This document shows, one piece after another, positions 13,128 through 47,410 of a stretch of 64,000 bases of DNA. How positions within the stretch are numbered: the stretch's first letter is position 1; every line of letters begins with the position of its first letter. The translations under genes and the position numbers were made by a program. The notes below the pieces were generated by a model. It ran no database searches, was not told the origin of the DNA, and worked only from the letters and a program-made list of their open reading frames with translations. The DNA comes from Flavobacteriales bacterium (GTDB lineage Bacteria > Bacteroidota > Bacteroidia > Flavobacteriales_D > Sanyastnellaceae), in assembly GCA_947442505.1 (NCBI GenBank), contig CANEVR010000001.1:30305-94304 (forward strand), given 5' to 3'.

Positions 13128-13726
13128 ATGGTTTGAATAAATTGACGAATAAAAATTTCTGGATTTACATTTTCCTCTAGGGCCTGTTCGCTCAATTCTC
13201 CCACTGGCCAATCACATGCCACAGAAGGGGGACTGGCTATATCGTTCAATTGACACTGAGGCAAAACCCAATCGGTAGATGGCGTAACAACATGACAAGG
13301 GGGAATAGTTTCGGGAGTCGCAATTGGGGCCGTTCTGCAAGACACATCAAGGAACTGAGGTTCATGTTCAGCCATCGACCAATCCGACGGCAACACTTCC
13401 AAATGTTGCACCTCCCAACGCACCACTTTTCTTTTGGGAAAAGAAATGAGAAAAGGAAAGAAGAACAAGGTGGCTCTGGGAGAATTAAAATTGGCCAGGT
13501 TCTGAAATTGGTCGTTGCCTTTTTTGACAAACCACCTTTTAAATCGATATCCTCTTCCTGGTCTTTTGTACCAGGGCTTAGACTGCCCATTGCGATAGTA
13601 GACCAACACCCACCGAGCATCAGAGGTCCATGACAAAGTAAAAAGTTTGTCGTGAAAGCAATGCGAAGGGGCATCGATCTGTCTCATCATGAACTCAAAT
13701 AAACAAAATTCGATGAAAAAAGACAA
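13124..13726 (-). CDS. hypothetical protein (up to 200 aa), first gene of the coupled operon
   Basis: The ORF's TGA overlaps the ATG of the DUF4407 gene (ATGA), which supports this frame over the alternative ORF 13246..13674. The start may be the MMRQ methionines at ~13690. No recognised domain. Confidence 0.5.
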   Translation of the reverse strand: MSFFIEFCLFEFMMRQIDAPSHCFHDKLFTLSWTSDARWVLVYYRNGQSKPWYKRPGRGYRFKRWFVKKGNDQFQNLANFNSPRATLFFFPFLISFPKRKVVRWEVQHLEVLPSDWSMAEHEPQFLDVSCRTAPIATPETIPPCHVVTPSTDWVLPQCQLNDIASPPSVACDWPVGELSEQALEENVNPEIFIRQFIQTI

Positions 13727-21960: not shown

Positions 21961-22695
21961 TTATGCATCAGCATTTACGATAAAACCCAAATTCTTTTCT
22001 TGAAGTAAATCATTCAGGTTTTCTATTTTAAAATGAACAACCTGGCTCCAATTTAATATGTTTCGATCCGTGCGTCTAGCCAAAGCTTCATTAAAAGGAA
22101 TTTTATACAATTCTAGTAATTTGTAGTTTGGATCAAAAACCACAATTACAATATAGTTTATTATTGCGTCTGTTGAGTATTCAATTGGTGTCCATCTCGC
22201 ATTTGTCGTTAAAGATTTTGCATGTGATTTTACTTGAAACTTAATACCATCAGCATTTTCTAAATCCCAAAATTGATTGATTCCGTTTGCAGATATATTA
22301 GCATCAAATATTACACTTGCTACCCACTCGCCCAATTGACCTGTAATATCCTTTTGGTTTCTCAATATTCCAACTTCTTTCAATGCATTATAAGACTCAA
22401 TAAAAGATGTGAATAATACAGACATCATTTCAAAACTTCTATTTGAAAAGTTTACGTTTTGATTACTGTCAATTCGTTGAACAACATCCTCTTCAGCTCC
22501 ATTATAGGCCTCCGGTGAAAACAAAAGAATTTCATTACCCACAACTTCCGATTTCCATCCATCTGCAAGCAGCGAAAAATACAAAGCATGGGTTATTTTG
22601 TTTGTGGGTCCGACGTTTAACCTCCACCACTTTTTCAAACCAATTTTAACGGCATTACCTTCTTTTATTGTTATTACAAAAAATTTCTTAATCAT
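21961..22695 (-). CDS. hypothetical protein, 244 aa, downstream partner of the 1815-aa STAND gene; possible PD-(D/E)xK-like nuclease core
   Basis: Starts 11 nt after the stop of the 1815-aa gene. The C-terminal half (GQLGEWVASVIFDANISANGINQFWDLENADGIKFQVKSH) resembles small restriction-endonuclease-fold proteins (E ... D ... xVK). This is a weak, motif-level call. Confidence 0.6.
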   Translation of the reverse strand: MIKKFFVITIKEGNAVKIGLKKWWRLNVGPTNKITHALYFSLLADGWKSEVVGNEILLFSPEAYNGAEEDVVQRIDSNQNVNFSNRSFEMMSVLFTSFIESYNALKEVGILRNQKDITGQLGEWVASVIFDANISANGINQFWDLENADGIKFQVKSHAKSLTTNARWTPIEYSTDAIINYIVIVVFDPNYKLLELYKIPFNEALARRTDRNILNWSQVVHFKIENLNDLLQEKNLGFIVNADA

Positions 22696-22706
22696 AATTT
22701 CTATTC

Positions 22707-25700
22707 TTAATTCAAGTCTTTAATTCTAATTTCAAACTCCTCCTCCGTAATCTTCCCCTTAGCCACCTGCTTAGCCCAGAGTTCAATTTGCTCCCGGTCG
22801 TCTTCATCGGCGATTTCGTGAAGCCATTCGATGAGGTTGGTGGAGGATTGAACTATATTATTTTTTGATATTAAATAAGTGCATGCCAAGTCCAAAGCCC
22901 ACTGAATTTCTAGTGTACGATTAAGTCGTTCTAAATTCGGGTTATTCTCCTCAATTAAAATAGCATGAGCTGCATACTTATGAAGGAGAATTTCTATACT
23001 ATCTGAATCATGGGCCAACATGCGAAGAGCGATTTGTAAACAATCTTTATCTGCTTCATTTTCTTTCAAGGCCATAGTCCAGCCCTTCAGATAATGCAAA
23101 CGAACGTCGCTATTGTTAAATACATTGGCCGTGAGTAAAGAGGATAGAAAGCCTTGTCTTTCATAAACAGATTCGGCAACTGCATACAGACATCTATGTT
23201 GCTGCAATGTATCTTCAATCTCTAGAGTGACAATCTCTAAATCAATCCATTTTTCATCTTGAGACATAGTCTTCAGCAAAAATTGTATCGCCTCTATCTT
23301 ATCATTAGATCGTTTATCAATGAATTTAACTACCATAACACCATACTCATAATTACCCAATTGTAAATACAACTTCGATATTTGCTTGTACTCAAAATCT
23401 CTTGCCGTATCCCTAGGAATCAATTCCATCCAAACAACATGTGATGCCTTTTCTTCTAGTTCAATAGCAAAGTTAAAATTGTAATCTTCCTTAGCTTTGA
23501 CTGCCAACTTCAAATAAATAATTGAAAGACTATAATCATCTTTGACTTGTTCTATTAATTTGATTTGAAACTCTGTCAAACAATTGGCATCTTTATTATA
23601 TGTCTCTACTATAAACTCACTTAAGAAAAAGAACTTATCTTCATCATCCAATTCCGAAATTGTTTTAAAAAACAATTCAATATCACCTTGGCGATATATT
23701 TCTTTTGCGATGTCTCCTTTGTAAATATCTATATTACCAAATTCAATACAATCAATCAACTTCAACGCATCTTTGAAATGACCTTGAAACGCCATTTCCC
23801 TACTTAAAGTTTGAAACACATAAAATCTTGCTTCTTTATTTTCAATTTGATTCGCCATCTCCTGTGCACGAATCAAGCAATCATTAGCTTCAAAAAAGCA
23901 ATTTAATTCATAATAAATAGTGGAAATCTTAGATAAGAAAATGGAAATTATCTCATTAGAATCCGTGAGAATAATATCAGCAATAGCACGCTCCACTAAC
24001 GCTATTTGCTTCGAACTGCGCAATACATGAAGAACTAATTCAATTTCTTCCCTCTTATAATCCTTTAGATCACAATAAAATGAAAAAATATAATTAAATG
24101 TAATTTCGTAGTCTTCATTTTTTATACAATCCTCAATATTTTTTTTCAATTCGTTCAACATTTTTTTATCATTGCTATGAGCATGTATAAAATCAAAAGC
24201 CTCTTGCCTTCGTCCTGAAAGAAATAATCGTCTAAATAGAACACTTTTCCCTTTGGATACATATTCACCTGATTCGAATTCAAATCTAGATTCAAGAAGA
24301 AGAAACACTAGATTATTGGATGCTACATTCTCTCCACACTGAATAAAGATTATTGCCAAATCCCCCAATATTGATTTACATTCTCTTGATAATAGAAATT
24401 GTTTTCCGCACTTTTCAATCAAATCCAAAATGAATTTTGCAGCATAAATTACCCGAGATTTTTTGATCAGCAGAATTGCACTTTGAATCGCCAAATCTAT
24501 CCTTTGTGGGTATGAACTAATTGATTCAATAGAAGTTAATGCTTCATTTAAAAACAAATCAGAATAGTATTTCATCTCTTGCCTCAACAGTTCTTTTGAA
24601 ATTTTATTTAGCAAAACAACCCTTTCTCCATTCTCGAGTTTCTGGATTAATTTCAAAGCATTATCAAAGTCCCCTTTTTCAGCTAAGTCGAATATTGCCA
24701 TTTCTAAGAATACCAAAAGGCCATCGGATATCTCTATTTCGTCAAATAATTCTATAGCCCTATGAACAGCCTCATTTTTTATAAAAGCAATTGCAATAAA
24801 ACACTGTATTCTTCTTCTAAAATAACCCTTTACAGCAACCGTACGTTTCAGCTTTTCTCCCGGTAAAAAGTAATCATCGATTTGAGCTGCCAGCGGTATA
24901 ACTATTTCTAAAATTTCAATAGCCTTTGAATGAAATTTAACTTGACTAAGATTCTTAGCTAATTCCAATAAAATATTACAACGGTAAAAGATGATTTCCT
25001 CTAATTCAACGCATAATAAAACTTCATTTATTAGTTCATCACACCAAATAGCGTCCAAGCCTATGATAAACGAAATTGCATTCGATCTATAATATGGCAT
25101 TGTAACTAATCTTGCGTATCCAATAGCCTCTAAATAAATTGACCTATTATCTATAAAAATACTTTTAGCCTGAGAAAAAACAACCATTTCAGCCAAAGTC
25201 TTGCTCTTCCAAAAATTGGTATTTATAGATCTAGCTATTGAAAATGCAAAATCAACTTCCCCTAATTTTAAAAAGGCTAACGCCAACTCTTTCTGCGATT
25301 CGCCTCTATAGCCATTGTCTTGTAAATCATTTGATAATTTATTTATTTCATCCAATACAGAAAAGGCATCTTCTTTGCAGAATTCATTAATTCTTTTACA
25401 AATCGCTATTATTGCGGCACTCTTCGAACCTTCATTTAGTATCTTGCTCATGCACTCCAATGCACGAGACCAATCACCAATGTCAAAAAAATGAATAACT
25501 ATCTTAGTCAATTCATCGTGTAAATAACTGTCAGTAAAGGAATAGTGACCAAAACTTAATATTAATTGAACACAGTCATTTAACTGGGCAATTGCCTGAC
25601 TTTTTAAATTCAATTTTTTTAAGTGATTTATTAAAAATTCTCTTTGATAAAAGTTGTAATTCTCAGATTGTGATTCAATTACAAATTTGTAAACTTCAAG

Positions 25701-28154
25701 CTCAAATAAACCATTTGGAGCGTCCAAATCGAACCAATTCAACCAATTATGGTCATATTTACCTTTCTTAAATAATATACGCCAATCTAAATCAGACAAA
25801 TCCAATTCGAACGCAAGACTGAGTACTATTTTAACGGGAAAAAAATCATTCCAATTCAGCACACTATGATCTGTTGGCAATTGCTCATCCAAATGGTTCA
25901 ACAACTTTTCAATTGCATCCTTCCTAAATGGCTTATCCTTGCTTTCCAATAAGGTGAGCTCCATCAAACAAAGCATGTACAAAATGAATTTACGCTGTAG
26001 GCCTTCTTTGTCTGCGCCTCCGAAGCTCTCAATCCTTTTCAACGCCAAATCAATTTCACCCGCAGCGACCATTGCCACAATCTGAGGAGCATCGTTGGCT
26101 TCTTCATATTTCAAATCAACCAAACACAAGGCCGCCTCCAATTGATCATCATAACGTTTGACATCGGATGCCTTCAACAAGGACAATCGGAAGAGTGCGT
26201 TGGTAGCTTCAAATCCCCTAAGCACTTTCTTCTGTGTCGCCTGGTACTCCGTATCATACATCAACTTCAATAGAGTTTCACCATGTTGCTCTTTGGCGCT
26301 CTCGTGCAAATGCGCTGCATAATGTTCCAGTGCATATCGCTGTTCCCAATCGCCTTTCAATTCCTTCCATCCAGCACAAAAAGCAATAATTCTTTGTTGT
26401 GCTTCTGACACTTCTCTGGCGTGCTCTTTCACCAAATATTCTCGGAAACTTTCATGAAACAACTGATAATCCAACACCTCCTCCGTGAGTGGATTTTCAT
26501 ACAGCACTTCCTTGAGCGTACTCCCAATTCGCATGAGTGTCGCGCTGCCTATCCCATTGATCAATCCCAAATGTGACATGGTCAAATAATCCTTAGCGGC
26601 CGCAAAGGTGAACAAACCACTCAATAAGGCTTCGCCATCAACATCGTTGGCATAGCGGAGCAAAATGGCTTTGTAATATTCGTCAATCTTGGAGGGCAAT
26701 GCCTGAACATCATTCAAAGCGATTCCATTATTTTCAATGGCATCACACAGCAATTTTAAGTACAAAGGATTTCCCTGGGAACGCTGCTGCACAGCATCAA
26801 TCCACAAACTATCTCGCTCTACTTCGTATTTATTGGCTACCTCATAAATCAGCGCACGAATATCCTCCTTACCCAACCCAGTAAGTTCTAATTTTTCATG
26901 TTGCTCCGGAGGCAACGTACCCCATAGATCGTCGATACTCTTGTGTCCACCGGGCCTTGAACCATAGATGATCAATACATTCTCGAAGTTCTCTCTTGGC
27001 AGGTAAACCGGAACATTGGCCTCGGTCCCCTCATCCAAACCATCAATCAAGAAAATGAGCTTCTTGCCTTGGCTGTGTTCATTCCACTGTCGCCATTTGC
27101 TGAAAAGTTGATATTGCAAATCAAAAATCAATTTGCCTTCCGCACGAATTTCTCTTCCCTGAGGAAACAATTCATCCGTGCGCTTGATGAGGTATTGAAA
27201 CAAATACTCAGCTTGCGCCTGTTGGGTTCCCCGACGAATAAAATATTCAACAATGGAGAAATTTTGAGCTTCCTTAAATCCCTTGAGATCTTTAAAGAAC
27301 TGAGCAATCAATGCAGACTTACCGATACCCGGATTCCCCTGAATGGAGAAATACCCTTTGTTCTTTTCTACAACAAAATCCAAGAGCCGCTTACGCTCGA
27401 TGGTGCGCCCCTTAAATGATTCTGTAAGTTCCTCGATCCGTTGAAAAAACTCATTATTCCCAGATTTCTTCCATTCGTTCAAAGGAAGATGAGACAGAAA
27501 TTCTTGGTAAAAATCCTTTTCCCGATAATGTTTGCCCAAAGGATAATTGAGTAATCCAATCTTATCATTCTTAATATCATTGAAGAATGCTAATGAGGCT
27601 TCAGTTTTTTCATCTCTGAAAATTAAAATAGGATGCAACGAAAGTTCAGTACTAATGGAACACAGGCGCACCTTCCCTTCTCTTACATCCAACGATGATT
27701 CTTGCAGCCACTGTGATTGCAAAAGCTTCAACAAGAATAATTCGAACTTTACTATATCTGCTACACAAGCCTCATCCGATGGTGTAGCACCGTGCGCATA
27801 TCCATTTCGAAAGGCAATAACATTGGTCTTATCGTTATTCAATGCCTTATCCAATGCTGCAAATTCTTCAGGAAAATGGGAAATGCTCCACTGAAATTGA
27901 TCTTTCTCGAGCTCCTCAAATAAAACGCGACTAAAAAGTTGCCAAGTTCCCAAAGATGGCGTTCTTAATCCTTGAGAAAGTAGTCCTTTTGCAGCATCGC
28001 TCAAGTTGTTTTGTCGCACATATTCAGAAATAATGACAGCAGTATGAGTTTTAATGATGCTTTCAAAAAGATCAATCATTCGGTGCACCTTGCGAAAGGG
28101 CTGGGACTCTTTTTGGTATAAGTCGTATAGAAATGTCAAATGGGGAAATCTCAT
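22707..28154 (-). CDS. 1815-aa STAND/NACHT-type NTPase: HEPN-like module, P-loop NTPase, ~1200-aa helical repeat region
   Basis: HEPN-like module (TPSLGTW ... IAFRNGYAHG, with R116-x4-H121 at nt 27792..27809). Walker A GNPGIGKS at nt 27315..27338 and Walker B IFLIDGLDEG. The long C-terminal alpha-helical repeat region has no clean TPR consensus. Confidence 0.9.
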   Translation of the reverse strand: MRFPHLTFLYDLYQKESQPFRKVHRMIDLFESIIKTHTAVIISEYVRQNNLSDAAKGLLSQGLRTPSLGTWQLFSRVLFEELEKDQFQWSISHFPEEFAALDKALNNDKTNVIAFRNGYAHGATPSDEACVADIVKFELFLLKLLQSQWLQESSLDVREGKVRLCSISTELSLHPILIFRDEKTEASLAFFNDIKNDKIGLLNYPLGKHYREKDFYQEFLSHLPLNEWKKSGNNEFFQRIEELTESFKGRTIERKRLLDFVVEKNKGYFSIQGNPGIGKSALIAQFFKDLKGFKEAQNFSIVEYFIRRGTQQAQAEYLFQYLIKRTDELFPQGREIRAEGKLIFDLQYQLFSKWRQWNEHSQGKKLIFLIDGLDEGTEANVPVYLPRENFENVLIIYGSRPGGHKSIDDLWGTLPPEQHEKLELTGLGKEDIRALIYEVANKYEVERDSLWIDAVQQRSQGNPLYLKLLCDAIENNGIALNDVQALPSKIDEYYKAILLRYANDVDGEALLSGLFTFAAAKDYLTMSHLGLINGIGSATLMRIGSTLKEVLYENPLTEEVLDYQLFHESFREYLVKEHAREVSEAQQRIIAFCAGWKELKGDWEQRYALEHYAAHLHESAKEQHGETLLKLMYDTEYQATQKKVLRGFEATNALFRLSLLKASDVKRYDDQLEAALCLVDLKYEEANDAPQIVAMVAAGEIDLALKRIESFGGADKEGLQRKFILYMLCLMELTLLESKDKPFRKDAIEKLLNHLDEQLPTDHSVLNWNDFFPVKIVLSLAFELDLSDLDWRILFKKGKYDHNWLNWFDLDAPNGLFELEVYKFVIESQSENYNFYQREFLINHLKKLNLKSQAIAQLNDCVQLILSFGHYSFTDSYLHDELTKIVIHFFDIGDWSRALECMSKILNEGSKSAAIIAICKRINEFCKEDAFSVLDEINKLSNDLQDNGYRGESQKELALAFLKLGEVDFAFSIARSINTNFWKSKTLAEMVVFSQAKSIFIDNRSIYLEAIGYARLVTMPYYRSNAISFIIGLDAIWCDELINEVLLCVELEEIIFYRCNILLELAKNLSQVKFHSKAIEILEIVIPLAAQIDDYFLPGEKLKRTVAVKGYFRRRIQCFIAIAFIKNEAVHRAIELFDEIEISDGLLVFLEMAIFDLAEKGDFDNALKLIQKLENGERVVLLNKISKELLRQEMKYYSDLFLNEALTSIESISSYPQRIDLAIQSAILLIKKSRVIYAAKFILDLIEKCGKQFLLSRECKSILGDLAIIFIQCGENVASNNLVFLLLESRFEFESGEYVSKGKSVLFRRLFLSGRRQEAFDFIHAHSNDKKMLNELKKNIEDCIKNEDYEITFNYIFSFYCDLKDYKREEIELVLHVLRSSKQIALVERAIADIILTDSNEIISIFLSKISTIYYELNCFFEANDCLIRAQEMANQIENKEARFYVFQTLSREMAFQGHFKDALKLIDCIEFGNIDIYKGDIAKEIYRQGDIELFFKTISELDDEDKFFFLSEFIVETYNKDANCLTEFQIKLIEQVKDDYSLSIIYLKLAVKAKEDYNFNFAIELEEKASHVVWMELIPRDTARDFEYKQISKLYLQLGNYEYGVMVVKFIDKRSNDKIEAIQFLLKTMSQDEKWIDLEIVTLEIEDTLQQHRCLYAVAESVYERQGFLSSLLTANVFNNSDVRLHYLKGWTMALKENEADKDCLQIALRMLAHDSDSIEILLHKYAAHAILIEENNPNLERLNRTLEIQWALDLACTYLISKNNIVQSSTNLIEWLHEIADEDDREQIELWAKQVAKGKITEEEFEIRIKDLN

Positions 28155-28323: not shown

Positions 28324-28512
28324 TTAAAAAACCACCAACACCAAAACAAACAAGAACAACAATAAAAGAAAAGAAAAAATGGTACACCCCAGTTGAATCA
28401 AATAACTCTCCAACTCCAACTGTAAGGTTTGTTCAAATTCTTCCATACCAAAATGAACCATAAGTACACGCACTACCACGGTTCCAAACATCATAAAAAG
28501 AAATAGACTCAT
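28324..28512 (-). CDS. small two-TM membrane protein, 62 aa, paralog of the 36226..36417 product
   Basis: Hydrophobic-acidic-hydrophobic layout. It aligns with the 63-aa product at 36226..36417 (shared MF.T...R...V..G..F..T...E.ESY.IQL). Conservation of the frame in two copies supports coding. Confidence 0.5.
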   Translation of the reverse strand: MSLFLFMMFGTVVVRVLMVHFGMEEFEQTLQLELESYLIQLGCTIFSFLLLLFLFVLVLVVF

Positions 28513-29034: not shown

Positions 29035-30819
29035 ATGCCAATCCCAGCTAACGCAACATTCAATCAAGTCAAACAATGGCTTGAAAAAAAATTACATGAT
29101 TCGAGAAGCATCTCAGCTGATCGCTCTCAAACACGATCAGTACCTCAAACAAAGGGGATTTATTTTTGGTTTATGAAACAAAGTTGCTACAAGCAATTAT
29201 CATCACTAATCAGCATAACTCCCGTTGAAAATCGAATAACTAAAACAATCAATGGCGAGAAATACGACCTTGTCTATTTAGGTACAGCAGGTGTCCGACC
29301 CAATACAAGCGGAATAAACAATGGTCACCTCAAAGAAAGACTAAAATGGCATTTGGCGAATAATATGTCAATCAGTGCATTTTGCAATGGAACGATGTCA
29401 ACTTTCAGAAGAACCATTGGACCTTTATTGGGAAATGATTTGTTCGGAAACAGTATGCAAGACAGAATCGATCAATTGCTTTACGAAAACTTCATTGTTT
29501 ACTGGATTGAATATCCTGGAAGTTTCAAGGATGTAGTAGAAGCAGTAAATCAAGATGAAGAGATTCTTATCCAAACAATCAGACCATTATTCAACCTTAA
29601 AAATAATCCCAACGCTAATATTGCGCATACATCCACTTATAAAATTCAGCAAAAAAGACTTCAATGTGAAAGTGTGAATAAGGCAAAGTATTGTAATGAC
29701 AAAGGACTTAAAGCCTCAGAACCATTGAAATCAAACCCTCCTACCCCCAAAACGCCAACTACAATTCAATTGGAAATACTGGAATGTGTTGAGTTTAAAG
29801 TGAGGAAGCATGAAAACATTTCACAAGTTTCTTCTAGGATAACCAATTTACCAAATGGCCCCTGCACTATTGAGTTATATAGTAAGGACAGGCAAAATAG
29901 GAAACTATACATCAATGGAAATCCGAGAACCGTACGAAAAGAAGGGAGAACTGTATCGCAATTTTTCAATTCGCCTGATGGCAACACACCAAAATGGCGC
30001 TTGGTTCAAGATGAGATGAATGATAAAAAGAATCCCATTGATATCATCACTGTGCGTGTTTGTAAACTTGGCAGCAGTTCCAATCCAGAAACGAAACCCA
30101 AAGTAAAAACGCAAACTCACAAACCAGTAATGACTTCTGCACAAATTTTTATCGATGATATTATCAAAAAAATTCCAAGTTTAACTGAACCGAAAAATAA
30201 AAAACTACTGATTATTAATTGCTGCGACGCAAAATCCATGCAGCCCAATAATCTTACCAATGCACATCATACAAACTATAACTTCGGGGCAGCCCTTAAT
30301 AATGCGCGGTTGATTCGGTTGACAGCTTACCAGGCAATGAATGCCAATTATTTCAATGGAAAAAAAAGAAATAATACACCTGTCAATCGCGCCTACTTCA
30401 TGGGGGCGATCAATCCAAATAACAGAAGACCTGTTTTTGATACTTACGGCAGCAATCATTCTCCATTTTTTAAACCCAACATCAAAGCACTCTACATTAA
30501 TAAAATACAAAATTCAAACTTACATATTCTTATTATTTCTGGTCTTTACGGGCTTTTACATCATAGTGACTACATCAACGATTATCACTTGGAAATCAAT
30601 AAAGGCAACAATGTGTGGGGAGCGACTATTTTGAATGCAATTAACGAATTCATTATTCAAAACAACATCGATAATCATCATGTTTTTTATTGCCTATCTC
30701 CTACATATCTACCTTTTATAGGGCACCCCAATGCGCATTGGAAGAATTTATGGAGAAATTTAGGCGGACGTGGGTATAATCAAGCCGCAGAATTAATTGA
30801 ATTTTTAAATCGAATCTAA
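29035..30819 (+). CDS. fusion protein: N-terminal GIY-YIG nuclease-like domain, Lys/Pro-rich linker, C-terminal YaaA/DUF328-like domain
   Basis: N-terminus: KGIYFWF ... YDLVYLGTAG ... LKERLKWHL ... EEILIQTIRPLFNLKNN, which matches the GIY / Y-x-G / R / E...N elements of the GIY-YIG fold. C-terminus: LLIINCCDAKS and LHILIISGLYGLLHHSDYINDYHLEI, which closely match the E. coli YaaA signatures ILISPAKT and [24 protein letters not shown]. Confidence 0.75.
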   Translation: MPIPANATFNQVKQWLEKKLHDSRSISADRSQTRSVPQTKGIYFWFMKQSCYKQLSSLISITPVENRITKTINGEKYDLVYLGTAGVRPNTSGINNGHLKERLKWHLANNMSISAFCNGTMSTFRRTIGPLLGNDLFGNSMQDRIDQLLYENFIVYWIEYPGSFKDVVEAVNQDEEILIQTIRPLFNLKNNPNANIAHTSTYKIQQKRLQCESVNKAKYCNDKGLKASEPLKSNPPTPKTPTTIQLEILECVEFKVRKHENISQVSSRITNLPNGPCTIELYSKDRQNRKLYINGNPRTVRKEGRTVSQFFNSPDGNTPKWRLVQDEMNDKKNPIDIITVRVCKLGSSSNPETKPKVKTQTHKPVMTSAQIFIDDIIKKIPSLTEPKNKKLLIINCCDAKSMQPNNLTNAHHTNYNFGAALNNARLIRLTAYQAMNANYFNGKKRNNTPVNRAYFMGAINPNNRRPVFDTYGSNHSPFFKPNIKALYINKIQNSNLHILIISGLYGLLHHSDYINDYHLEINKGNNVWGATILNAINEFIIQNNIDNHHVFYCLSPTYLPFIGHPNAHWKNLWRNLGGRGYNQAAELIEFLNRI

Positions 30820-30849
30820 TTATTCACAGAATACAAATCAATCAAGAAT

Positions 30850-32031
30850 ATGACAGACCAAATTGAGGACACCTTTTTTGAAGACTACTTATCGTTCGAA
30901 AAATTTCCAAATTCATTGTACTACATTGCACCGGGGTTTGATTTTGAACCCCTGTGGAGAATGTCACATTTATGTGACACCTTCTTCTATGCAAATTTGT
31001 ATTACACTTTGGATAAAGTTCAAACCAGTATTTACAATCAACTTCAAAATTCTAAGAATGTCGAAATTGTTTCTTTGGAGATTGATGAGCGCTTTGATGA
31101 AACAACACATTTCGATCTTCATCCCAACTTCAGAAAACATTTCAAAGAAGCATCATCACTGCTCTCTCCAACTGAGCAAAGAGGCTATATCAACACTTTT
31201 GTGCCTGCATTGCATGAAAGTCAATGGATGATCACCGTTAAACTTAGAAGAAAGTCTACAGACCGCATAATAACTCTTTTCTACTTCACTGGTGAAGGTT
31301 TAGCTTCCTATGTTGCACTCAGTAAAAATGGAGCATCTGCACCCCGAGTAATTTGCACCATTCAGTCTGGAATTTTAGAAAGACCCAACGGATTAATGTC
31401 CCGCCTGCTCAACTCGTTCGAAAAAAAGCCTTTATTGTGGATAAGAGGTTTTGAAGAAACTTCTGACAAGTGGCTATACTCAGATGCTTTCAATGAAGAC
31501 AACTTGTACAATCATGTTGGACTCGACTTCATTCATGAATGGATTGTACCTGCATCTTACTTAGGTTTTTATGAGGATGCTCCCAGCAGAAGGTTTTGCA
31601 AAGGGTTTATTACCCAACAGACCTTTGATGAAAATCTTCAAATCCCTAAAGTGAATGTAAATAATCATGTTATCCATTTCAATGGTATTGAAAATATCCA
31701 ATGGCGCAACAACAATGATCATCGCTCTGCACTTTTTATTTTCAAGAATGTTTATGCCCCTTTTGAAACTATATTGGATAAGTGCGATGATGTCAGTTTC
31801 TGGGAAGAATGTTTATACCCATCATTTCGCAAAGACTCCTCTAAGGAATGCATCGATTTTTTGAGAAAAATTGATTCCCTCAACAAATACAAAGAAATTC
31901 ACTTCATTCCTTTCGGTATGGAGGATGAAGGGAAATTGTACCAAGACTTTTTCAATGAAAATCACAATGCGCAATTCCATATGTATCTGCATCGCCCCAT
32001 GGACTTTTATGACTTAAAGCCCGGTCAATAA
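30850..32031 (+). CDS. hypothetical protein, 393 aa, downstream partner of the GIY-YIG::YaaA-like gene
   Basis: The ORF starts 30 nt after the upstream stop on the same strand. No recognised motif. Confidence 0.65.
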   Translation: MTDQIEDTFFEDYLSFEKFPNSLYYIAPGFDFEPLWRMSHLCDTFFYANLYYTLDKVQTSIYNQLQNSKNVEIVSLEIDERFDETTHFDLHPNFRKHFKEASSLLSPTEQRGYINTFVPALHESQWMITVKLRRKSTDRIITLFYFTGEGLASYVALSKNGASAPRVICTIQSGILERPNGLMSRLLNSFEKKPLLWIRGFEETSDKWLYSDAFNEDNLYNHVGLDFIHEWIVPASYLGFYEDAPSRRFCKGFITQQTFDENLQIPKVNVNNHVIHFNGIENIQWRNNNDHRSALFIFKNVYAPFETILDKCDDVSFWEECLYPSFRKDSSKECIDFLRKIDSLNKYKEIHFIPFGMEDEGKLYQDFFNENHNAQFHMYLHRPMDFYDLKPGQ

Positions 32032-32044
32032 TTATGAAGCCTGA

Positions 32045-32224
32045 GCGAAGAAAACAGCAGCGCTAAATTATTACATTCAATCTGGTGAAATAAGAAAAAA
32101 TGATCCTGATTTCGGCATTGAAGCTGAGTTAACACAGGAATCCATTAAGGCTTGTATTCGGTTGGCGAAAGAATTGGGGAAGGAAAGTGAGTTGCCTGAT
32201 TGGATGAAAGAAATAAAAAATTAA
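32045..32224 (+). pseudogene. relic 3' end of a STAND-TPR gene, paralogous to the end of 17182..21348
   Basis: The in-frame translation NYYIQSGEIRKNDPDFGIEAELTQESIKACIRLAKELGKESELPDWMKEIKN* aligns with the last ~55 aa of the 1388-aa protein (RYFLQSAEIKIEDHDLGIEAEATQESIKACIRLAKELGKESELPEWIKENY*). Nt 32114..32203 against 21240..21332 have only a handful of mismatches. An upstream in-frame stop sits at 32042 and there is no start codon, so only the tail survives. Confidence 0.75.
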
Positions 32225-32286
32225 AGTCGAATATTAGCGACATCGCAGTAAACTTTTATATTTATAGAAAACTAAAACTCAAAACA

Positions 32287-32943
32287 ATGGCCTATATCGC
32301 AAAACTCGTCTGCAACCGATTGGGTTGGACAGTTCCCTCTGGACTTGATGCAAAATCTGATAATGTTGAATACGGCCCATTTGAGGCTCAAGTTCATTTT
32401 GGATTTGAAGAATGGCTGTATAATGAAACCCACTCCATTGAATTGGAAGATGGCCGTTACTATTTTGGATTCGTCGAGTGCTTTCGAAATAGTAGAAATT
32501 TCAATCCGATAGCTCAATTACATCTATTCACTCAGTTGTTTTCAAATTCTGCCAACCCTAATCAAGTCAACACCAAAAGATATGTGGGTTCTTTGTCAGG
32601 AGTTTATCCTATTACAAAAGATGTCTACGCTCAAATTATTAACTCTCATCCAGGAATCGTGGATAGAATGAGAAAGGAATTAATCACAGCACTCGCGAAT
32701 GACCCCGTTTTACAAGAAGCCCTTGTCGAATTTGACGAAGCCGCAGAAAATCAAGATTTATTCAATTGTCTTTACGTCCGACGTAATCGACATCGCAAAC
32801 CTGCCGTAGCTCACAATTGGGAGTACCTTCAAATTCAACAAGGATTGCAAAAACACTTACCCAATAATTTTGGACTGACCGAAATCGGGCAGGATTTTAT
32901 TCAGAAGCTCCAAAACAACCAAAACACACCTCAGATTCCATAA
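32287..32943 (+). CDS. hypothetical protein, 219 aa
   Basis: The supplied ORF starts at TTG 32200 inside the relic. ATG 32287 (MAYIAKLVCNRLGWTVPSG ... FGFEEWLYN) is the more likely start. Family not recognised. Confidence 0.6.
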   Translation: MAYIAKLVCNRLGWTVPSGLDAKSDNVEYGPFEAQVHFGFEEWLYNETHSIELEDGRYYFGFVECFRNSRNFNPIAQLHLFTQLFSNSANPNQVNTKRYVGSLSGVYPITKDVYAQIINSHPGIVDRMRKELITALANDPVLQEALVEFDEAAENQDLFNCLYVRRNRHRKPAVAHNWEYLQIQQGLQKHLPNNFGLTEIGQDFIQKLQNNQNTPQIP

Positions 32944-33020: not shown

Positions 33021-34058
33021 TCAAATAAGATGAATCGAATTATTCAAAACCATTTGATATACTTCTTGTCTGTATTGCGTTGTAGGGCTTCCGTTAGCAA
33101 TTAGCTGATGGTTGATTGTCAAATATTGACTAACATTCTGCCCCATTTGAAGCTGAGGTAATCCCAACAAATTAGCTTTATAATTAATCCATTTACGGAA
33201 GAAAGAACTTTTAAACATTTGGATCGCTGCAGCACCAGCAGGACTTGGAAGATTAATAATTCGAATTGTCTTATTTTCTGATTTTAACCACCATACGACT
33301 CCACCTTCTTGTTGCAGAACAGCCATTTGCAAGCCTGTATTATTTATTGGGTAATACGGCCCATTGCCTGAAATGTCACCAGATACTGTAAACGCATCAA
33401 GACCACCACAACAGTCCTCTAATATCCACCTAAACCCAGTCAATGTTGAAACGGAATTCGATAAAAACGAATCTAACTTTCCGCTCGTAAATAGGACAGT
33501 CCTAATCGAAGAACTTGAATCAAATAACCGACTTAAGTTACAATTAACCACAATGTTTTTCAAATCGCTATCCGCAGCACTTCTCATGTTTTTTCGCTGA
33601 ACAAAAGAAAATACATCTGAAATAGAAATATCATGCAATGCTAATTGTTGCTGTAGAAAAGGGATTGCAATATTCCCTTGAATGCCTGGAAATAAATAAT
33701 TCCACAAGCTATTCATGTTCCCATAGAAGAAATGCGTTGGATTATTGTTTTGAACATTTGGATTTGGTAAATTATTCAAAGGCAAATTATTCAAATAGGA
33801 AGATGGAGGAAATGTACCCAAAAGTATAGTATGGCGTTGAAAATCGCAGTCGGCAGCATACAAATCAATGTAAGGGTGTTTCTCTATAGGTCCGGGGGAT
33901 TTAGGCTGCTGAATTAGACCTAAATAAGTATCTAAATGCTCGTAGACATTATTAATAACACTACCCCAATTCCGTATTACCAAATCTGTTAAAGCTGGTG
34001 TATTTGCTACTCCATTTTGGATTAGGAAATTATAAATGGCTTGATTTCTTTTTCTCAT
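33021..34058 (-). CDS. uracil-DNA glycosylase superfamily-like protein (family 6 / deoxyinosine glycosylase-like motifs), enlarged to 345 aa
   Basis: Motifs in the expected order: ILLGTFPPSSY (aa 78-88, nt 33795..33827), FFYGNMNSLWNYL, ISDVFSFVQRKNMRSAADSDL, VLFTSGK, and NLPSPAGAA (aa 269-277). The protein is roughly twice the size of typical family members, with an N-terminal extension and inserts. Confidence 0.6.
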   Translation of the reverse strand: MRKRNQAIYNFLIQNGVANTPALTDLVIRNWGSVINNVYEHLDTYLGLIQQPKSPGPIEKHPYIDLYAADCDFQRHTILLGTFPPSSYLNNLPLNNLPNPNVQNNNPTHFFYGNMNSLWNYLFPGIQGNIAIPFLQQQLALHDISISDVFSFVQRKNMRSAADSDLKNIVVNCNLSRLFDSSSSIRTVLFTSGKLDSFLSNSVSTLTGFRWILEDCCGGLDAFTVSGDISGNGPYYPINNTGLQMAVLQQEGGVVWWLKSENKTIRIINLPSPAGAAAIQMFKSSFFRKWINYKANLLGLPQLQMGQNVSQYLTINHQLIANGSPTTQYRQEVYQMVLNNSIHLI

Positions 34059-35757: not shown

Positions 35758-36102
35758 TTAGATAGCATAGTAAACCTTACAAGGTTTATTTCTTTTTCGA
35801 CAATAACGAATTCCGTTCGAAGTACCCTTGCAGAGTCCATCCCAAAAGGCGATGCACAAATCATAATTGTCAATGATCTCTTTGCTCCTCATTACTCCGG
35901 CACTTTTACCATAGGCAGCCCAATTGGGTTCAAAGATCAATGTTGGGATTGAATGAGCAATGGCCCACTCTTCTGCCATTTTGTCTGCCCCTCTGCACCC
36001 TCCAGAAATCAAAAATGTTATTTGAGGCAAATACTCAATAAGAACTTCACTCAACAGTCTTCGATTATCAAAATCTCGACTTTCTATTACAGCAATTTTC
36101 AT
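35758..36102 (-). CDS. SLOG-superfamily protein (DUF2493/YspA-like), 114 aa
   Basis: Motifs ISGGCRGADKMAEEWA, NWAAYGKSAGVMRSKEII and IAFWDGLCKGTSNGI match the DUF2493 pattern (GGARGAD ... W..yGk.AG..RN ... aFWDG.S.GT). Confidence 0.8.
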   Translation of the reverse strand: MKIAVIESRDFDNRRLLSEVLIEYLPQITFLISGGCRGADKMAEEWAIAHSIPTLIFEPNWAAYGKSAGVMRSKEIIDNYDLCIAFWDGLCKGTSNGIRYCRKRNKPCKVYYAI

Positions 36103-36225
36103 ACTATCTAGAATTACAAATTAAACTATAAATGAGCAAGGTCTTTTCAGGCCATAAACCATGAAGATGCTCACTTCTAAATACCCAAGAAAGGATTGAA
36201 AAGACACCGCAGAATTCATGAATCA

Positions 36226-36417
36226 TCACGGAATCAACATCAACAACAACACGTACACTAAAATGATAACAAAATAATAGTAAGTTGAATAGGACAATTG
36301 AATCACATACGACTCCATCTCCATCCAAAAGGTTTTTCCAAATACATCCCACCCCGCATACACAATAAACAAGCGGGCGAAAATGGTCCAAAACATCAAA
36401 GAGAGTAATCCATTCAT
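36226..36417 (-). CDS. small two-TM membrane protein, 63 aa, paralog of the 28324..28512 product
   Basis: See 28324..28512. I preferred this frame over the overlapping ORF 36104..36391 because only this one has a paralog. Confidence 0.5.
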   Translation of the reverse strand: MNGLLSLMFWTIFARLFIVYAGWDVFGKTFWMEMESYVIQLSYSTYYYFVIILVYVLLLMLIP

Positions 36418-36663
36418 TGTTTAGAAATTTTTAGGGTTAATAAAAAGTTACACTTCTATACAACACTACCAAACAATAAAAACGAAACGAAACATTTACA
36501 CAACTATTCTAATACGCAATCATGCATCCCTCTATTGCATTTCTGCTTTAAAATAACTTTTTCCTCTTTTTTCTAAAATATTTTATCTATTGCAACAAAA
36601 CTGCAAACAATTGGTTGTATATTTAAAATTCTCGCCAAGTAACCCCTTAAATAATATATATAT

Positions 36664-36930
36664 ATGATGAAAAAAATGGTGAAGTTAAGTTTTGGGAAGT
36701 GGAAGGTGGTAAAGTTTAGTGGTAGTTATTATGTGAATTTTTTTGTGGAGAAGGATTTGTTTGTGGTGATTGATGGTGAAAAGTATTTTAAGATTAAAAA
36801 AGGGAAGTTGAGAAGTTTGGGGATGAAGTATTTTGAAAAGAAAAAAGAGGAATCCTATGAAGGTGTTGAATCCTCCCCCGAACTCATCCGTCTCATCAAA
36901 CTTCTCGTCGAACTCAATCAGGCCGCTTAA
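36664..36930 (+). CDS. questionable 88-aa ORF; its first ~63 codons lie in a cytosine-free tract
   Basis: An ORF exists, but the composition is bizarre: no C in 36647..36853, so no Pro, His, Gln, Thr or Ala are encoded there. It could equally be non-coding. Confidence 0.3.
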   Translation: MMKKMVKLSFGKWKVVKFSGSYYVNFFVEKDLFVVIDGEKYFKIKKGKLRSLGMKYFEKKKEESYEGVESSPELIRLIKLLVELNQAA

Positions 36931-36963
36931 TCCATCCCCATACCGTTCTGGTATTCCTGATTA

Positions 36964-37075
36964 TTGAGTAAAGAGTATTGAGTATTCAGTAACGAGTAAC
37001 GAGTAACGAGTAACGAGTAACGAGTATCCAGTATCCAGTATCCAGTATCCAGTATCCAGTATCCAGTAATGAGTA
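36964..37075. repeat. 16 tandem heptamers NNNAGTA (ttg, aag, ttg, ttc, acg x5, tcc x6, atg)
   Basis: Counted directly: 16 x 7 = 112 nt with an invariant AGTA core. There are two internally perfect sub-arrays, (ACGAGTA)5 and (TCCAGTA)6. Confidence 0.95.
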
Positions 37076-37105
37076 CTATCTACTCTCTACTGTGAGCTGT
37101 GAACT

Positions 37106-37217
37106 CATTCCTTCATTCCTTCATTCCTTCATTCCTTCATTCCTTCATTCCTTCATTCCTTCATTCCTTCATTCCTTCATTCCTTCATTCCTGCATCCCT
37201 TCATCCCTTCATCCCTT
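37106..37217. repeat. 14 tandem octamers (CATTCCTT x10, CATTCCTG x1, CATCCCTT x3)
   Basis: Counted directly: 14 x 8 = 112 nt, ending 30 nt before the NADAR start codon. The + strand is G-free across 37102..37192. Confidence 0.95.
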
Positions 37218-37246
37218 TAAGTATAACCCCTAAATACACAAACTTT

Positions 37247-37720
37247 ATGGCAAACATCTCTTTTACAAAAGTCAACCTCCCTTACGGTTGGTTGGGAAAC
37301 ATGGCTCCTTCCACCATCACTTGGAACGGAAAAACCTGGAGAACATGTGAAGCAGTTTTTCAAGCAATGAGATTCTCTAACCCAGAAATCCAAGAAATCA
37401 TTCGGTTGGAAAAAAGTCCCATGTCTTGTAAGATGAAATCAAAAAAGTACAAATCTGAAATGACAGTGGAACCCATGTCCAAACAGGATGTTCAAAACAT
37501 GAAAACCTGTCTCCTTCTCAAATTCACTCAAAACCCGGTTCTACTTCAAAAACTTCTTTTAACCAAAAATCATGTTCTAATTGAAGACATTGGATCAAGG
37601 AAAGGTGAACGTCACCTCTTTTGGGGAATGAGAAACAAAGGAGGTCTGTGGGAAGGAAAGAACATTTTGGGAAAACTTTTGATGGAAGTACGTGAGGAAC
37701 TAAAACATAACGTCTCATAA
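37247..37720 (+). CDS. NADAR (DUF1768/YbiA-like) domain protein
   Basis: Aligns by eye along its whole length with E. coli YbiA: GWLGNMAPSTITWNGKTWRTCEAVFQAMRF vs GDFSNFAAWPIKVDGKTWPTSEHYFQAQKF; SPMSCKM vs SPMVAARM; WEGKNILGKLLMEVREEL vs GKGKNRLGYLLMELREQL. Confidence 0.85.
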   Translation: MANISFTKVNLPYGWLGNMAPSTITWNGKTWRTCEAVFQAMRFSNPEIQEIIRLEKSPMSCKMKSKKYKSEMTVEPMSKQDVQNMKTCLLLKFTQNPVLLQKLLLTKNHVLIEDIGSRKGERHLFWGMRNKGGLWEGKNILGKLLMEVREELKHNVS

Positions 37721-37802
37721 CCCTTGAAGGTCAAAAAGACCTTCCCAACATCTATTTATCTTTTTAAAAAAAATTACCCATCATTTAATAAAAACAAACA
37801 CC

Positions 37803-38924
37803 ATGAAAATCTTTGAAAACTTGTCCGAAGCAAAATCCTTCATCGCGTCATTCATTCATGATCAAAAATGGACCACACAAATCAATAACTACAGTTATCG
37901 TCAATACTACAGAACTCGTATTTATCCCGAAAAACCCTTATTGAACTATTTCAACAAAGTCAGTATCACTCCATCTTCATATACCTTCTCCCGAATTTTT
38001 GATCGTGTCCCTAGGGAAAACCACAATTCCATTATTACTGCCTTTCACGATGGAGACATCGAATATGAGAAAATGGACCTGATCACTGAAGACATCTACT
38101 ATGAAATCACTCAACCACAACCCACCAGTGCCTCTCAATGGTTCACCATCTTCGAATCCTTTTTCTCCTCTTCCTACCTATCAAATAACAACATCCACCC
38201 AAACACCCTCGACCAACTTCTCAATCAAGAAAAAGAAGAAAAAGTCATGAGATGGGAAGAAATCCGACACGACCTCCGAATCATTCTTTCGTTCTCCCTG
38301 TATGATCATGAAGTTCAAATATCATTCTGTGACATGGACAAAAGAAATGACCAATTTGTCCGAACCAATTGGAATCCCGTCACCGCATACTATGAAGGTA
38401 AATTCTTATATCGTCCCAAGTTCTTTGACCGTTTTTGTAATCGACACGATGTCGCATTCATGGAATGGCAAGGTTATCCTCAACATCCTTTGGCCAACCT
38501 GAACGAACAAGTGTTCAACATCCAGTTCAATGAATACAGTGAAGGTCAATGGGATCGCATCTTTTCAAGAAGTCGTTCCAATCTTAAAAAGGAATTAATC
38601 AATGTACTCTCCCACATTCATTTGACCATTGGAAAAGACATCCTGGGGAATTTTACCAATGACTTGAAAACATTATCCCTTCAAGCCCCTACTCCAGAAG
38701 AACAAAAAGACGCCAAAGTCAAAAAAATGTACGGAGACCGATTGTACTTCTATACACCAGAAAACGACATCTTCATCTACTACGGTCCCATCATCACCAG
38801 AGACTATAATGGAACCCAATTTCTTATTTACACCTTGCGCATTCGTGTTGTTCCATTTGACAACCAAAAGTGGGATGAGCGCCATTGCTACGCTCATCCC
38901 TTGGTTTATGAAATGGACAAATAA
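37803..38924 (+). CDS. hypothetical protein, 373 aa, downstream of the NADAR gene
   Basis: Long ORF 82 nt after the NADAR stop on the same strand. No recognised motif. Confidence 0.65.
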   Translation: MKIFENLSEAKSFIASFIHDQKWTTQINNYSYRQYYRTRIYPEKPLLNYFNKVSITPSSYTFSRIFDRVPRENHNSIITAFHDGDIEYEKMDLITEDIYYEITQPQPTSASQWFTIFESFFSSSYLSNNNIHPNTLDQLLNQEKEEKVMRWEEIRHDLRIILSFSLYDHEVQISFCDMDKRNDQFVRTNWNPVTAYYEGKFLYRPKFFDRFCNRHDVAFMEWQGYPQHPLANLNEQVFNIQFNEYSEGQWDRIFSRSRSNLKKELINVLSHIHLTIGKDILGNFTNDLKTLSLQAPTPEEQKDAKVKKMYGDRLYFYTPENDIFIYYGPIITRDYNGTQFLIYTLRIRVVPFDNQKWDERHCYAHPLVYEMDK

Positions 38925-38931
38925 ATCCAAA

Positions 38932-39900
38932 TTACTTCCCAATCGATTGAGCCAGGCGAGAGGACAAGTCCCGAATGTCCTCCACCCTGGCCAATTGTTT
39001 TAGCCAATGTTGGGGTATCTCATCTTCCCCGTAAGCAATACCGGCCAAACCACCCACCACAGCTCCCGTGGTATCCGAATCTTCGCCCAGATTCACTGCT
39101 TTTAGGACCGCTTCTTCAAATGATTGGGTATGCAACAGACACCAAATGGCCGCTTCCAAGGTATCAATGACGTATCCACTGCTCGAAATCGTTTCTATTC
39201 CTCTCTTCCACAAATCACCTGACAATATCCCGGAGAAGTGAATCAACTCCGATGGATCGAGCAACGACTCGCGCTCAATCAAAGACTGGATAGATCCGTT
39301 GGTCTCAGCATAAGCATCATCCACCCGCATGCCTCTCAACATCCGAACGGCCAACTCAATGAAATAAATGCAAGCAAAGATGGATCGTGGATGGCGATGG
39401 GTGATGGAGGATACTTGCCTCACGATTTCCATTCTGTCCTTTCTGTCCATATCAATGGTAAAGAAGGCCAACGGTAAAATGCGCATCAATGACCCATTGC
39501 CATTGCTCATCTCATCTGCCCCTCCTGCCAACGCTGGAGAAACGCCGGCCTCGATATTCTGCAATGCTTTTCTTGTTGCTATCCCAATGTCAAAGACATC
39601 GCCATCTGCGGACCAATACGCTCTGCGGTACCATTGAACAAAACGATTCGAGATATCGTTCAAATCAAAACCACTGATCAACGACTCTGCCAAGCAAAAG
39701 GTCAAGGACGAATCATCCGACCATGTTCCTGGAGGCAAATCATAGGTTCCATACCCCGTCATGTCGCGGACAGGTGACTCCAAAAGGGAGGATCTTGAAC
39801 GAAATTCAAAGGGAACGCCCAAAGCATCTCCAATGGCCACCCCCAAAAGGGCAGATTGCACTTGGTGATTCCAATCACCAGCTGTTTTGTTATTTATCAT
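38932..39900 (-). CDS. ADP-ribosylglycohydrolase (ARH/DraG family)
   Basis: N-terminal LGVAIGDALGVPFEF and C-terminal GEDSDTTGAVVGGLAGIAYG..IP..W are the family's metal-site signatures. Confidence 0.9.
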   Translation of the reverse strand: MINNKTAGDWNHQVQSALLGVAIGDALGVPFEFRSRSSLLESPVRDMTGYGTYDLPPGTWSDDSSLTFCLAESLISGFDLNDISNRFVQWYRRAYWSADGDVFDIGIATRKALQNIEAGVSPALAGGADEMSNGNGSLMRILPLAFFTIDMDRKDRMEIVRQVSSITHRHPRSIFACIYFIELAVRMLRGMRVDDAYAETNGSIQSLIERESLLDPSELIHFSGILSGDLWKRGIETISSSGYVIDTLEAAIWCLLHTQSFEEAVLKAVNLGEDSDTTGAVVGGLAGIAYGEDEIPQHWLKQLARVEDIRDLSSRLAQSIGK

Positions 39901-39928
39901 TGTTAATCATTTACTTATCATTCATTCA

Positions 39929-47286: not shown

Positions 47287-47410
47287 TCACTTCATCTCCT
47301 CATCACTTCATCTCCTCATCACTTCATCTCCTCATCACTTCATCTCCTCATCACTTCATCTCCTCAACTCCTCATCACTTCATCACTTCATCTCCTCATC
47401 ACTTCATCAC
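47287..47410. repeat. 16-nt tandem repeat TCACTTCATCTCCTCA (5 perfect copies, two half units, one more copy, one partial)
   Basis: Counted directly. The + strand has no G across 47267..47427. The array abuts and overlaps the stop of the Fic gene. Confidence 0.95.

Follow-up and report, generated by a model that had tools for sequence, protein, structure and literature searches.

A GIY-YIG nuclease fused to a YaaA/DUF6884-like domain in a defence-type island of Bacteroidota

Stand-alone YaaA and DUF6884 proteins are widespread and enigmatic, and here we describe a gene in which a domain of this superfamily is joined to a GIY-YIG nuclease. The gene, hereafter A, lies in a 64,000-nucleotide (nt) stretch of a Flavobacteriales genome (assembly GCA_947442505.1, contig CANEVR010000001.1), which is analysed as a whole and called the window, and it is followed by a second gene, B, of 393 amino acids (aa). 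A sequence-only reading of the window had proposed that A and B form a two-gene DNA-targeting module in a defence island, that A fuses its nuclease to a YaaA-like domain through a Lys/Pro-rich linker, and that the pair replaced most of a STAND-TPR gene. We followed up these proposals with profile searches, structure models and comparative genomics.

Genes A and B and their relatives

The two genes, the domains of A and the gene relic that follows B are arranged as follows.

29035-30819, + strand: gene A, an open reading frame (ORF) of 594 aa with a GIY-YIG nuclease, a middle domain and a YaaA/DUF6884-like domain
29155-29625, + strand: GIY-YIG nuclease domain of A (Pfam GIY_YIG_2, PF20815), residues 41-197, within a folded N-terminal domain of residues 1-222
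29779-30075, + strand: middle domain of A, hereafter M, residues 249-347, a small alpha/beta domain with a predicted local distance difference test score (pLDDT) of about 70-90
30124-30819, + strand: C-terminal domain of A, residues 364-594, placed in the YaaA/DUF6884 superfamily by Pfam matches below the cut-off, a family profile and Foldseek
30850-32031, + strand: gene B, an ORF of 393 aa of an uncharacterised family
32057-32212, + strand: relic of the 3' end of a STAND-TPR gene, starting 26 nt past the stop codon of B

Both ORFs are found at the coordinates first proposed for them, and so is every motif that had been quoted: GIYFWF (residues 41-46), VYLGTAG (80-86), KERLKWH (100-106), EEILIQTIRPLFN (175-187), LLIINCCDAKS (391-401) and ISGLYGLLHHSDYINDYHLEI (501-521). 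They share the + strand, are separated by 30 nt and are also called as a pair in three independent assemblies of the same Bacteroidota metagenome-assembled genome (MAG) organism (GCA_947489395.1 and two metagenome assemblies). A has approximately 150 homologues, down to an E-value of 1e-45, and both A and B are real genes with homologues. The AlphaFold model of A (mean pLDDT 86.9) contains three folded domains (residues 1-222, 249-347 and 364-594), separated by disordered Lys/Pro-rich linkers at residues 223-248 and 348-363. The linker of the sequence-only reading is therefore confirmed, but its two-part architecture overlooked the domain in the middle. M has no match in Pfam or among PDB sequences; within the A family its residues C251, F311, M328, T339, V342 and C343 are kept at a level of at least 90%, and the domain also occurs in a divergent 513-aa protein of locus L027.

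The N-terminal domain matches PF20815 over residues 41-197 with an E-value of 4.4e-20 and 72.7 bits, well above the cut-off of 22.4. Across 73 aligned relatives, eight residues (G41, Y43, Y81, G83, R102, H106, E175 and N187) never vary, so the full catalytic set is kept throughout the family. Judged by these residues, the domain appears to be the catalytically intact GIY-YIG nuclease that had been predicted.

The C-terminal domain is more divergent. A profile of the A family retrieves Escherichia coli YaaA (5caj) from the PDB sequences at an E-value of 2.3e-5, and a Foldseek search with the model of A places 5caj_A on top with a probability of 1.00 and an E-value of 5.5e-3 over 263 columns, the next match having a probability of 0.06. 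5caj is the only credible Foldseek match, and the domain is predicted to have the YaaA ('cantaloupe') fold, with similarity at the superfamily level only; A scores far under the cut-offs of the NCBIfam YaaA equivalog models. Six residues (C396, K400, Y471, S502, G506 and Y517) are invariant among 57 C-terminal domains of the family, and C396-x3-K400 and S502-x3-G506 correspond to the CxxxK and LSAxxG motifs of DUF6884. Taken together, the profile and Foldseek matches to 5caj and the two motifs make the label 'YaaA-like' correct at the superfamily level, as opposed to an unrelated fold, and by its motif signature the domain is nearer to DUF6884 than to YaaA. The proposed YaaA-like C-terminus is thus borne out, more precisely as a DUF6884-like branch with an invariant Cys-x3-Lys. 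Among the relatives, the 513-aa protein of L027, which likewise combines GIY-YIG, M and YaaA-like parts, clears the cut-off of PF03883 (YaaA/DUF328) with 40.6 bits, and many family members bear precomputed PF03883 matches. Some carry wrong database annotations, such as 'cytoplasmic iron level regulating protein YaaA', and others have none. The sole PHROG match of A is marginal (phrog_6760, which has no assigned function, E 0.0068) and covers the YaaA-like residues 484-542, with no stretch passing alone.

The fusion is only one of the forms in which the nuclease and the YaaA-like domain occur. Members of the A family are either fused proteins of approximately 590 aa or short proteins of approximately 215-350 aa that contain GIY-YIG with or without M, and wherever the sequence of a short-form locus extends far enough, a YaaA-like gene follows as the next ORF on that strand. 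Such split pairs are found in 11 loci (L007, L011, L013, L015, L018, L019, L020, L021, L022, L024 and L025), so that the two parts are adjacent separate genes in roughly half of the loci; L007 also holds a second, smaller pair of GIY-YIG and YaaA-like genes. The separate C-terminal proteins (P0307-P0349, for example L013:11038-12054) are approximately 350 aa long and carry an additional conserved N-terminal domain of about 95 aa with the pattern 'GVLQPIxLQAI...AICNAMRN...GG.I', which has no Pfam or PDB sequence match and stands where the fused proteins have M. Even C-terminal domains that BLAST does not align (for example P0012 and P0025) bear the same motifs. Because fusion alternates with adjacent genes, the conserved functional unit appears to be a GIY-YIG nuclease plus a YaaA/DUF6884-like domain, and this fusion and fission is strong comparative evidence that the two act together. 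The proposed fusion exists and is undescribed in the searchable literature, but it is no one-off: it belongs to a family of approximately 150 proteins that is split in about half of its loci.

In a scan of one genome per species, covering 185,579 species, we found 22 A-type loci, nearly all of them in freshwater Bacteroidota MAGs (Flavobacteriales, Chitinophagaceae, Spirosomataceae and Crocinitomicaceae), and one in an Akkermansia MAG. No relatives of A or B were found among 2.9 million viral contigs of IMG/VR. This sporadic distribution makes A-type genes accessory rather than housekeeping genes, and neither of two outcomes that would have undermined the sequence-only reading is seen: the catalytic residues are not lost in homologues, and the genes are not a housekeeping unit of all relatives.

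Gene B had been described as a partner without recognisable features, and our searches agree, with no match in Pfam, NCBIfam, PADLOC or PHROGs and none by profile among PDB sequences. It has 41 close homologues, and an exhaustive profile search found 381 representatives of 50% identity clusters at E<=1e-3. The predicted model is confident (pLDDT 86.3, predicted template modelling score 0.86). A Foldseek search with it against the PDB returns nothing at E<0.04, with all template modelling (TM) scores below 0.25, and the matches to BFVD viral models are weak and methyltransferase-like, with all TM-scores below 0.3. Over both searches the weak matches are mostly to SAM methyltransferases (DOT1-like with a probability of 0.89, FkbM with 0.51, PEAMT and spermidine synthase). 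The invariant residues of the family (G29, D31, E33, P34, R37, E149, G150, E177, E358, D359, E360 and D385) are mostly acidic or glycine, which suggests an enzyme; B is probably an enzyme with a predicted Rossmann-like alpha/beta architecture. An assignment as a methyltransferase was considered and not adopted, given the low TM-scores and the lack of a methyltransferase Pfam match or motif in B. Distant B relatives (P0177, P0231, P0259 and P0276) are fused to a GGACT/AIG2, DUF4919, GNAT or class I methyltransferase domain, and these fusion partners have no common theme.

B adjoins an A-type gene in the window, in L006 (where the A-type gene belongs to a different C-domain subfamily), L027, L036, L039 and L055, and at the P0145 locus, where B lies upstream; in L018 it is 4 kb away. 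This corresponds to about 7 of 20 B loci, and in the species scan B is next to A, or within 4 kb of it, in 2 of the 22 genome loci. B occurs without an A-type gene in L031, L033, L038, L040, L041, L043, L045, L046, L057 and L059, where its neighbours include the same AAA ATPase, a SIR2 protein, an integrase, a UvrD-PDDEXK protein or a WYL regulator. As both families are rare, seven adjacencies at 38-94% B identity are clearly non-random. The proposed two-gene module therefore recurs as a pair, but most A loci lack B and many B loci lack A, and B is a facultative, modular partner rather than half of an obligate two-gene system.

The surrounding island and the STAND-TPR relic

Between approximately 17 and 50 kb the window has a guanine-plus-cytosine (G+C) content below that of its flanks, and besides A and B this region holds the following genes.

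17182-21348 and 22707-28154: two STAND NTPase-TPR genes
21961-22695, - strand: mREase_II-like gene of 244 aa between the STAND genes (PADLOC mREase_II, type II methyl-directed restriction enzyme, E 7e-7; no Pfam match)
35758-36102: YAcAr/SLOG gene (YAcAr E 3.8e-13)
37247-37720: NADAR gene
38932-39900: ADP-ribosylglycohydrolase gene
39929-41596: IetA-like AAA gene
47407-48360, - strand: SoFic, a Fic-domain gene (PADLOC E 8.6e-38)
48427-49665, - strand: PDC-S01 ATPase gene (AAA_14/DUF4143) adjoining the SoFic gene (PADLOC candidate PDC-S01, E 6.9e-155)

Genes with DUF6717 and DUF2779 are also part of the island. With two STAND NTPases, an IetA-like AAA protein, SoFic, PDC-S01 and the mREase_II-like gene in the window, the surroundings are defence-island-like as had been claimed, and the description of the region as a defence island is reasonable. 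The SLOG neighbour is confirmed by its YAcAr match. The 'UDG-like glycosylase' that had been placed nearby (33021-34058, - strand) is not supported: it has only short motifs, and no sequence match in Pfam, NCBIfam or the PDB. Short UDG-type motifs (LGTFPP/LGSFNP...YYG...PSPAG/SPSG) are common to this ORF and to L031:4522-5211, which lies near a B gene, at a non-significant E-value of 0.13.

The relic downstream of B had been recognised from the letters alone, and both kinds of alignment confirm it. By tblastn, its 52 residues share 73% identity with the C-terminal end of the STAND-TPR protein from 17182-21348, and its DNA at 32078-32211 matches 21205-21338 with 85% identity over 134 nt (blastn, E 3e-39), which is the only internal DNA repeat between 17 and 47 kb. 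The relic identifies one border of the A-B cassette as a site of recombination or insertion. The only unit common to the window, L006, L039 and L055 at this position is A-B, and the shared unit and the relic together fit the view that A and B moved as a two-gene cassette and took the place of most of a STAND-TPR paralogue. Around the cassette, a search for terminal repeats or target duplications found only short repeats at chance level. After the relic comes an ORF (32200-32943, called as 218 aa) that is a separate gene, since L038 holds a homologue of it. Scans for sigma-70 promoters and terminators gave nothing above shuffled expectation, with a promoter model that does not cover Bacteroidota.

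Two further features of the window are recorded here. On either side of the segment with A, B and the YAcAr gene lies a small hydrophobic ORF, of 62 and 63 aa respectively (28324-28512 and 36226-36417, both - strand); the two are paralogues with 33% identity over 61 residues (E 1.5e-14), and other assemblies annotate both as genes. A block of higher G+C content at 8287-13211 (- strand) encodes an uncharacterised protein of 494 aa, an OmpA-domain protein (9764-11056) and a DUF4407 protein (11886-13211).

To describe the neighbourhood of the family as a whole, all ORFs in 25 A-type loci were clustered, and the following neighbours recur.

14 of 25 loci: helix-turn-helix (HTH)-WYL-WCX regulator, usually directly adjacent
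10 of 25 loci: ADP-ribosylglycohydrolase
10 of 25 loci: uncharacterised protein of approximately 213 aa
7 of 25 loci: DUF2779 (Cas4-like PD-(D/E)XK)
6 of 25 loci: IetA-like AAA ATPase
4 of 25 loci: NADAR

The WYL regulator is the commonest immediate neighbour (L004-L009, L013, L014, L016, L019-L022 and L024). Neighbours of A-type genes also include AbiE, SoFic and DrmC, and L027 contains an SRA-HNH gene. Methyltransferases are represented by a single SPOUT match among the top 25 families listed for the 120 nearest neighbours. A set of genes recurs with A or B in shuffled order (L006, L027, L055 and others): ADP-ribosylglycohydrolase, NADAR, IetA-like AAA, DUF6717, DUF2779, and uncharacterised proteins of approximately 373-393 aa (37803-38924 in the window), 88 aa (36664-36930) and 185 aa. 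This recurring set, at 35758-41596 in the window, may be one larger island centred on ADP-ribose and DNA rather than a collection of independent systems.

A proposed reader-nuclease and its alternatives

From the computed domain identities, residue conservation, fusion and fission, neighbourhoods and relic, we infer DNA targeting, base inspection, cleavage and a role in defence. In the reading that we place first, and hold tentatively at a little less than an even chance, A is a DNA endonuclease directed by a module that reads lesions or modifications, and it acts in biological conflict. The YaaA/DUF6884-type domain would bind DNA, its invariant Cys-Lys-Tyr-Ser-Tyr pocket would inspect a flipped-out damaged or modified nucleotide, and the flexibly tethered GIY-YIG domain would then nick or cut nearby, with M perhaps adding DNA contacts or coupling the other two domains. 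The unit could work as a single polypeptide or as two adjacent gene products, usually under the control of the neighbouring WYL regulator, and its role would be either restriction of modified or damaged invading DNA, in a type IV-like manner, or self-cutting triggered by damage. B would be an accessory enzyme that travels with the nuclease in some lineages as a two-gene cassette. The A unit is a sporadic, horizontally shuffled cassette of Bacteroidota defence-type islands, and a conflict role is ranked first on the strength of this distribution, the WYL regulators and the defence-type genes nearby.

The literature on the superfamily is consistent with such a reader. Two papers (PMC10055390 and PMC8632793) cite Prahlad et al. 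2020 for DNA binding by E. coli YaaA, and the Pfam curators describe DUF6884 as a distant YaaA relative with CxxxK and LSAxxG motifs and a proposed active site around a flipped base (PMC11701544). The findings on yaaA in Caulobacter and on YfjM, given below with the repair rival, support this reading as well.

Several observations weigh against this reading. The sequence match of A to the superfamily is below the Pfam thresholds, with 24.0 bits for PF03883 (E 3.2e-5, cut-off 29.6) and 17.8 bits for DUF6884 (PF21818; E 3.9e-3, cut-off 30), and the TM-score of the A model to 5caj is modest at 0.45 on the target. The weak match of residues 476-539 to the PADLOC candidate PDC-M57A, which would favour a conflict role, is marginal (E 1.8e-3, 16.6 bits), covering the SGxxG segment only, and no other PDC-M57 component was detected. 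A tblastn search found no WYL gene in the 64-kb window. Known defence genes are scattered among the immediate neighbours of A-type genes, where housekeeping genes (MFS, FeoB, glycosidases) are also present, and the WYL regulators, ADP-ribosylglycohydrolase and NADAR suit a role in DNA damage and repair equally well. To our knowledge E. coli YaaA is not known as an enzyme or a base-flipper, and the base-flipping idea rests on one AlphaFold3 model in the Pfam paper (PMC11701544).

The main rival is a dedicated DNA-repair incision enzyme, which we regard as unlikely. Here the YaaA-like domain would recognise one kind of base lesion, such as ADP-ribosylation, oxidation or base loss, the cut would be made by the GIY-YIG domain, as it is in UvrC during excision repair, and a WYL regulator of the PafBC/DriD type would induce the unit after damage. 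WYL-WCX regulators do adjoin 14 of the 25 loci, and two families of enzymes that remove ADP-ribose recur at distances of up to 10 kb from A-type genes (ADP-ribosylglycohydrolase in 10 and NADAR in 4 of 25 loci), with both in the window; WYL regulators control defence systems too, however, such as those with BrxR and CapW. Loss of yaaA makes Caulobacter sensitive to mitomycin C (MMC), ultraviolet light (UV) and H2O2, which marks YaaA as a survival factor under DNA damage (PMC10055390), and DNA baits with abasic sites or ribonucleotides enriched the DUF6884 protein YfjM (PMC10220248, Table 1). Yet a patchy family of 22 loci in 185,579 species genomes, with shuffled gene order and a home in low-G+C islands, is unlike a core repair function, its neighbours include STAND NTPases, AbiE, SoFic and IetA-like ATPases, and its cassette displaced a STAND gene in the window.

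Two other explanations are weaker than the repair rival. A selfish, free-standing homing-type endonuclease cassette, similar to I-TevI, would cut cassette-free alleles and spread with B by repair-mediated copying. Such a cassette would account for a nuclease tied by disordered linkers to putative DNA-binding domains, for the different contexts that flank A-B in the window, L006, L039 and L055, and for the replacement of most of a STAND-TPR gene, but we consider it improbable: Bacteroidota MAGs carry the genes in chromosomal islands, with no sign of an intron or intein and no relatives in the IMG/VR contigs, the cassette is not flanked by terminal repeats or target duplications, frequent pairing with WYL regulators is atypical of homing endonucleases, and the invariant Cys/Lys/Tyr/Ser pocket suggests chemistry or base inspection rather than plain reading of sequence. 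Very improbable, in our judgement, is a restriction-modification-like pair in which B would be a divergent modifier, for example a methyltransferase-like Rossmann protein, that shields host DNA. GIY-YIG restriction enzymes exist (Eco29kI and Hpy188I), A and B are tightly linked (30 nt, one strand, seven loci with 38-94% B identity), and B combines a confident alpha/beta fold with many invariant acidic residues and weak Foldseek matches that are mostly to SAM methyltransferases. However, co-occurrence is low, with B at only 2 of the 22 genome loci and often present without A, and since most A-type loci lack B, A does not need it for host protection. B has no methyltransferase Pfam match or motif and no structural match at a TM-score of 0.3 or more, and its distant relatives are fused to GGACT, GNAT and DUF4919 domains and in one case to a separate methyltransferase domain, which makes it unlikely that B itself is a DNA methyltransferase.

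Returning to the lesion- or modification-directed nuclease, a more specific form of it is possible, although we think it doubtful. In this form the GIY-YIG/M/YaaA-like unit with its WYL regulator, and sometimes B, would be an immune or toxin-damage-response system of Bacteroidota, in which the YaaA/DUF6884 fold would serve as a base-flipping sensor or enzyme. Once its invariant Cys-Lys-Tyr-Ser-Tyr pocket had recognised a modified nucleotide, such as an ADP-ribosylated base or a hypermodified one of a phage, the GIY-YIG domain would be allowed to cut.

Significance and comparison with known systems

YaaA/DUF328 and DUF6884 proteins have been linked to DNA binding, to survival of peroxide, MMC and UV, and to binding of abasic baits. 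The repeated fusion or pairing of this fold with an intact nuclease is a 'Rosetta stone' in favour of a fold that steers an activity towards particular DNA structures, and cleavage offers a tractable assay for its ligand. Should the unit be a defence or damage-response system, it would add a new reader-nuclease combination and a Bacteroidota-specific island set (WYL, ADP-ribosylglycohydrolase, NADAR, DUF2779, IetA-like AAA and B), and if the base-flipping sensor is true, it would provide a first mechanistic role for the YaaA superfamily, with B as a new enzyme fold alongside. The B family comprises several hundred proteins; its structure is predicted with confidence, and it has neither a Pfam model nor a relative of solved structure.

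Compared with E. coli YaaA (DUF328/UPF0246, 5caj), the C-terminal domain of A has the same predicted fold and the S-G-x-x-G...Y-x-L-E segment, and it shares with DUF6884 (PF21818; Bacillus subtilis YfjM) the CxxxK and LSAxxG-type motifs, which are invariant. YaaA and YfjM are stand-alone, widespread proteins of approximately 140-260 aa, whereas the domain in the A family is fused or adjacent to a GIY-YIG nuclease and a further domain and is confined to sporadic Bacteroidota islands. To the candidate system PDC-M57 of PADLOC there is only the weak match of the C-terminal domain to component A.

The nuclease part is like I-TevI, the N-terminal domain of UvrC, Eco29kI and Hpy188I in its core of Tyr, Tyr, Arg, His, Glu and Asn and in its flexible-linker tether to separate putative DNA-recognition domains. 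It differs from them in belonging to the GIY_YIG_2 variant, whose GIY and YIG strands are set apart by a long insert, in candidate targeting domains that are not of the zinc-finger, HTH or UvrB-interacting type, and in having no phage or intron context and no recognised cognate methyltransferase. Regulation by WYL proteins, as in BrxR-BREX, CapW-CBASS, PafBC and DriD, is suggested by the HTH-WYL-WCX gene adjacent to 14 of the 25 A-type loci; the cargo is new, and the copy in the window has no WYL gene within 64 kb.

In the searchable literature we found no paper on a fusion of YaaA with GIY-YIG and nothing on PF20815 or PDC-M57. The logic of a reader domain joined to a nuclease is already familiar from type IV restriction enzymes and from tethered nucleases like I-TevI; the YaaA/DUF6884 fold as the nuclease partner is undescribed as far as that literature shows. 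In modification-dependent (type IV) enzymes (ScoMcrA-type SRA-HNH, MspJI and PvuRts1I) a nuclease is fused to a base-flipping reader. The architecture of A would fit this pattern, with a candidate reader and a nuclease in one polypeptide, no apparent need for a methyltransferase and a location in what looks like a defence island. The candidate reader of A is the YaaA/DUF6884 fold and not an SRA, YTH or EVE domain.

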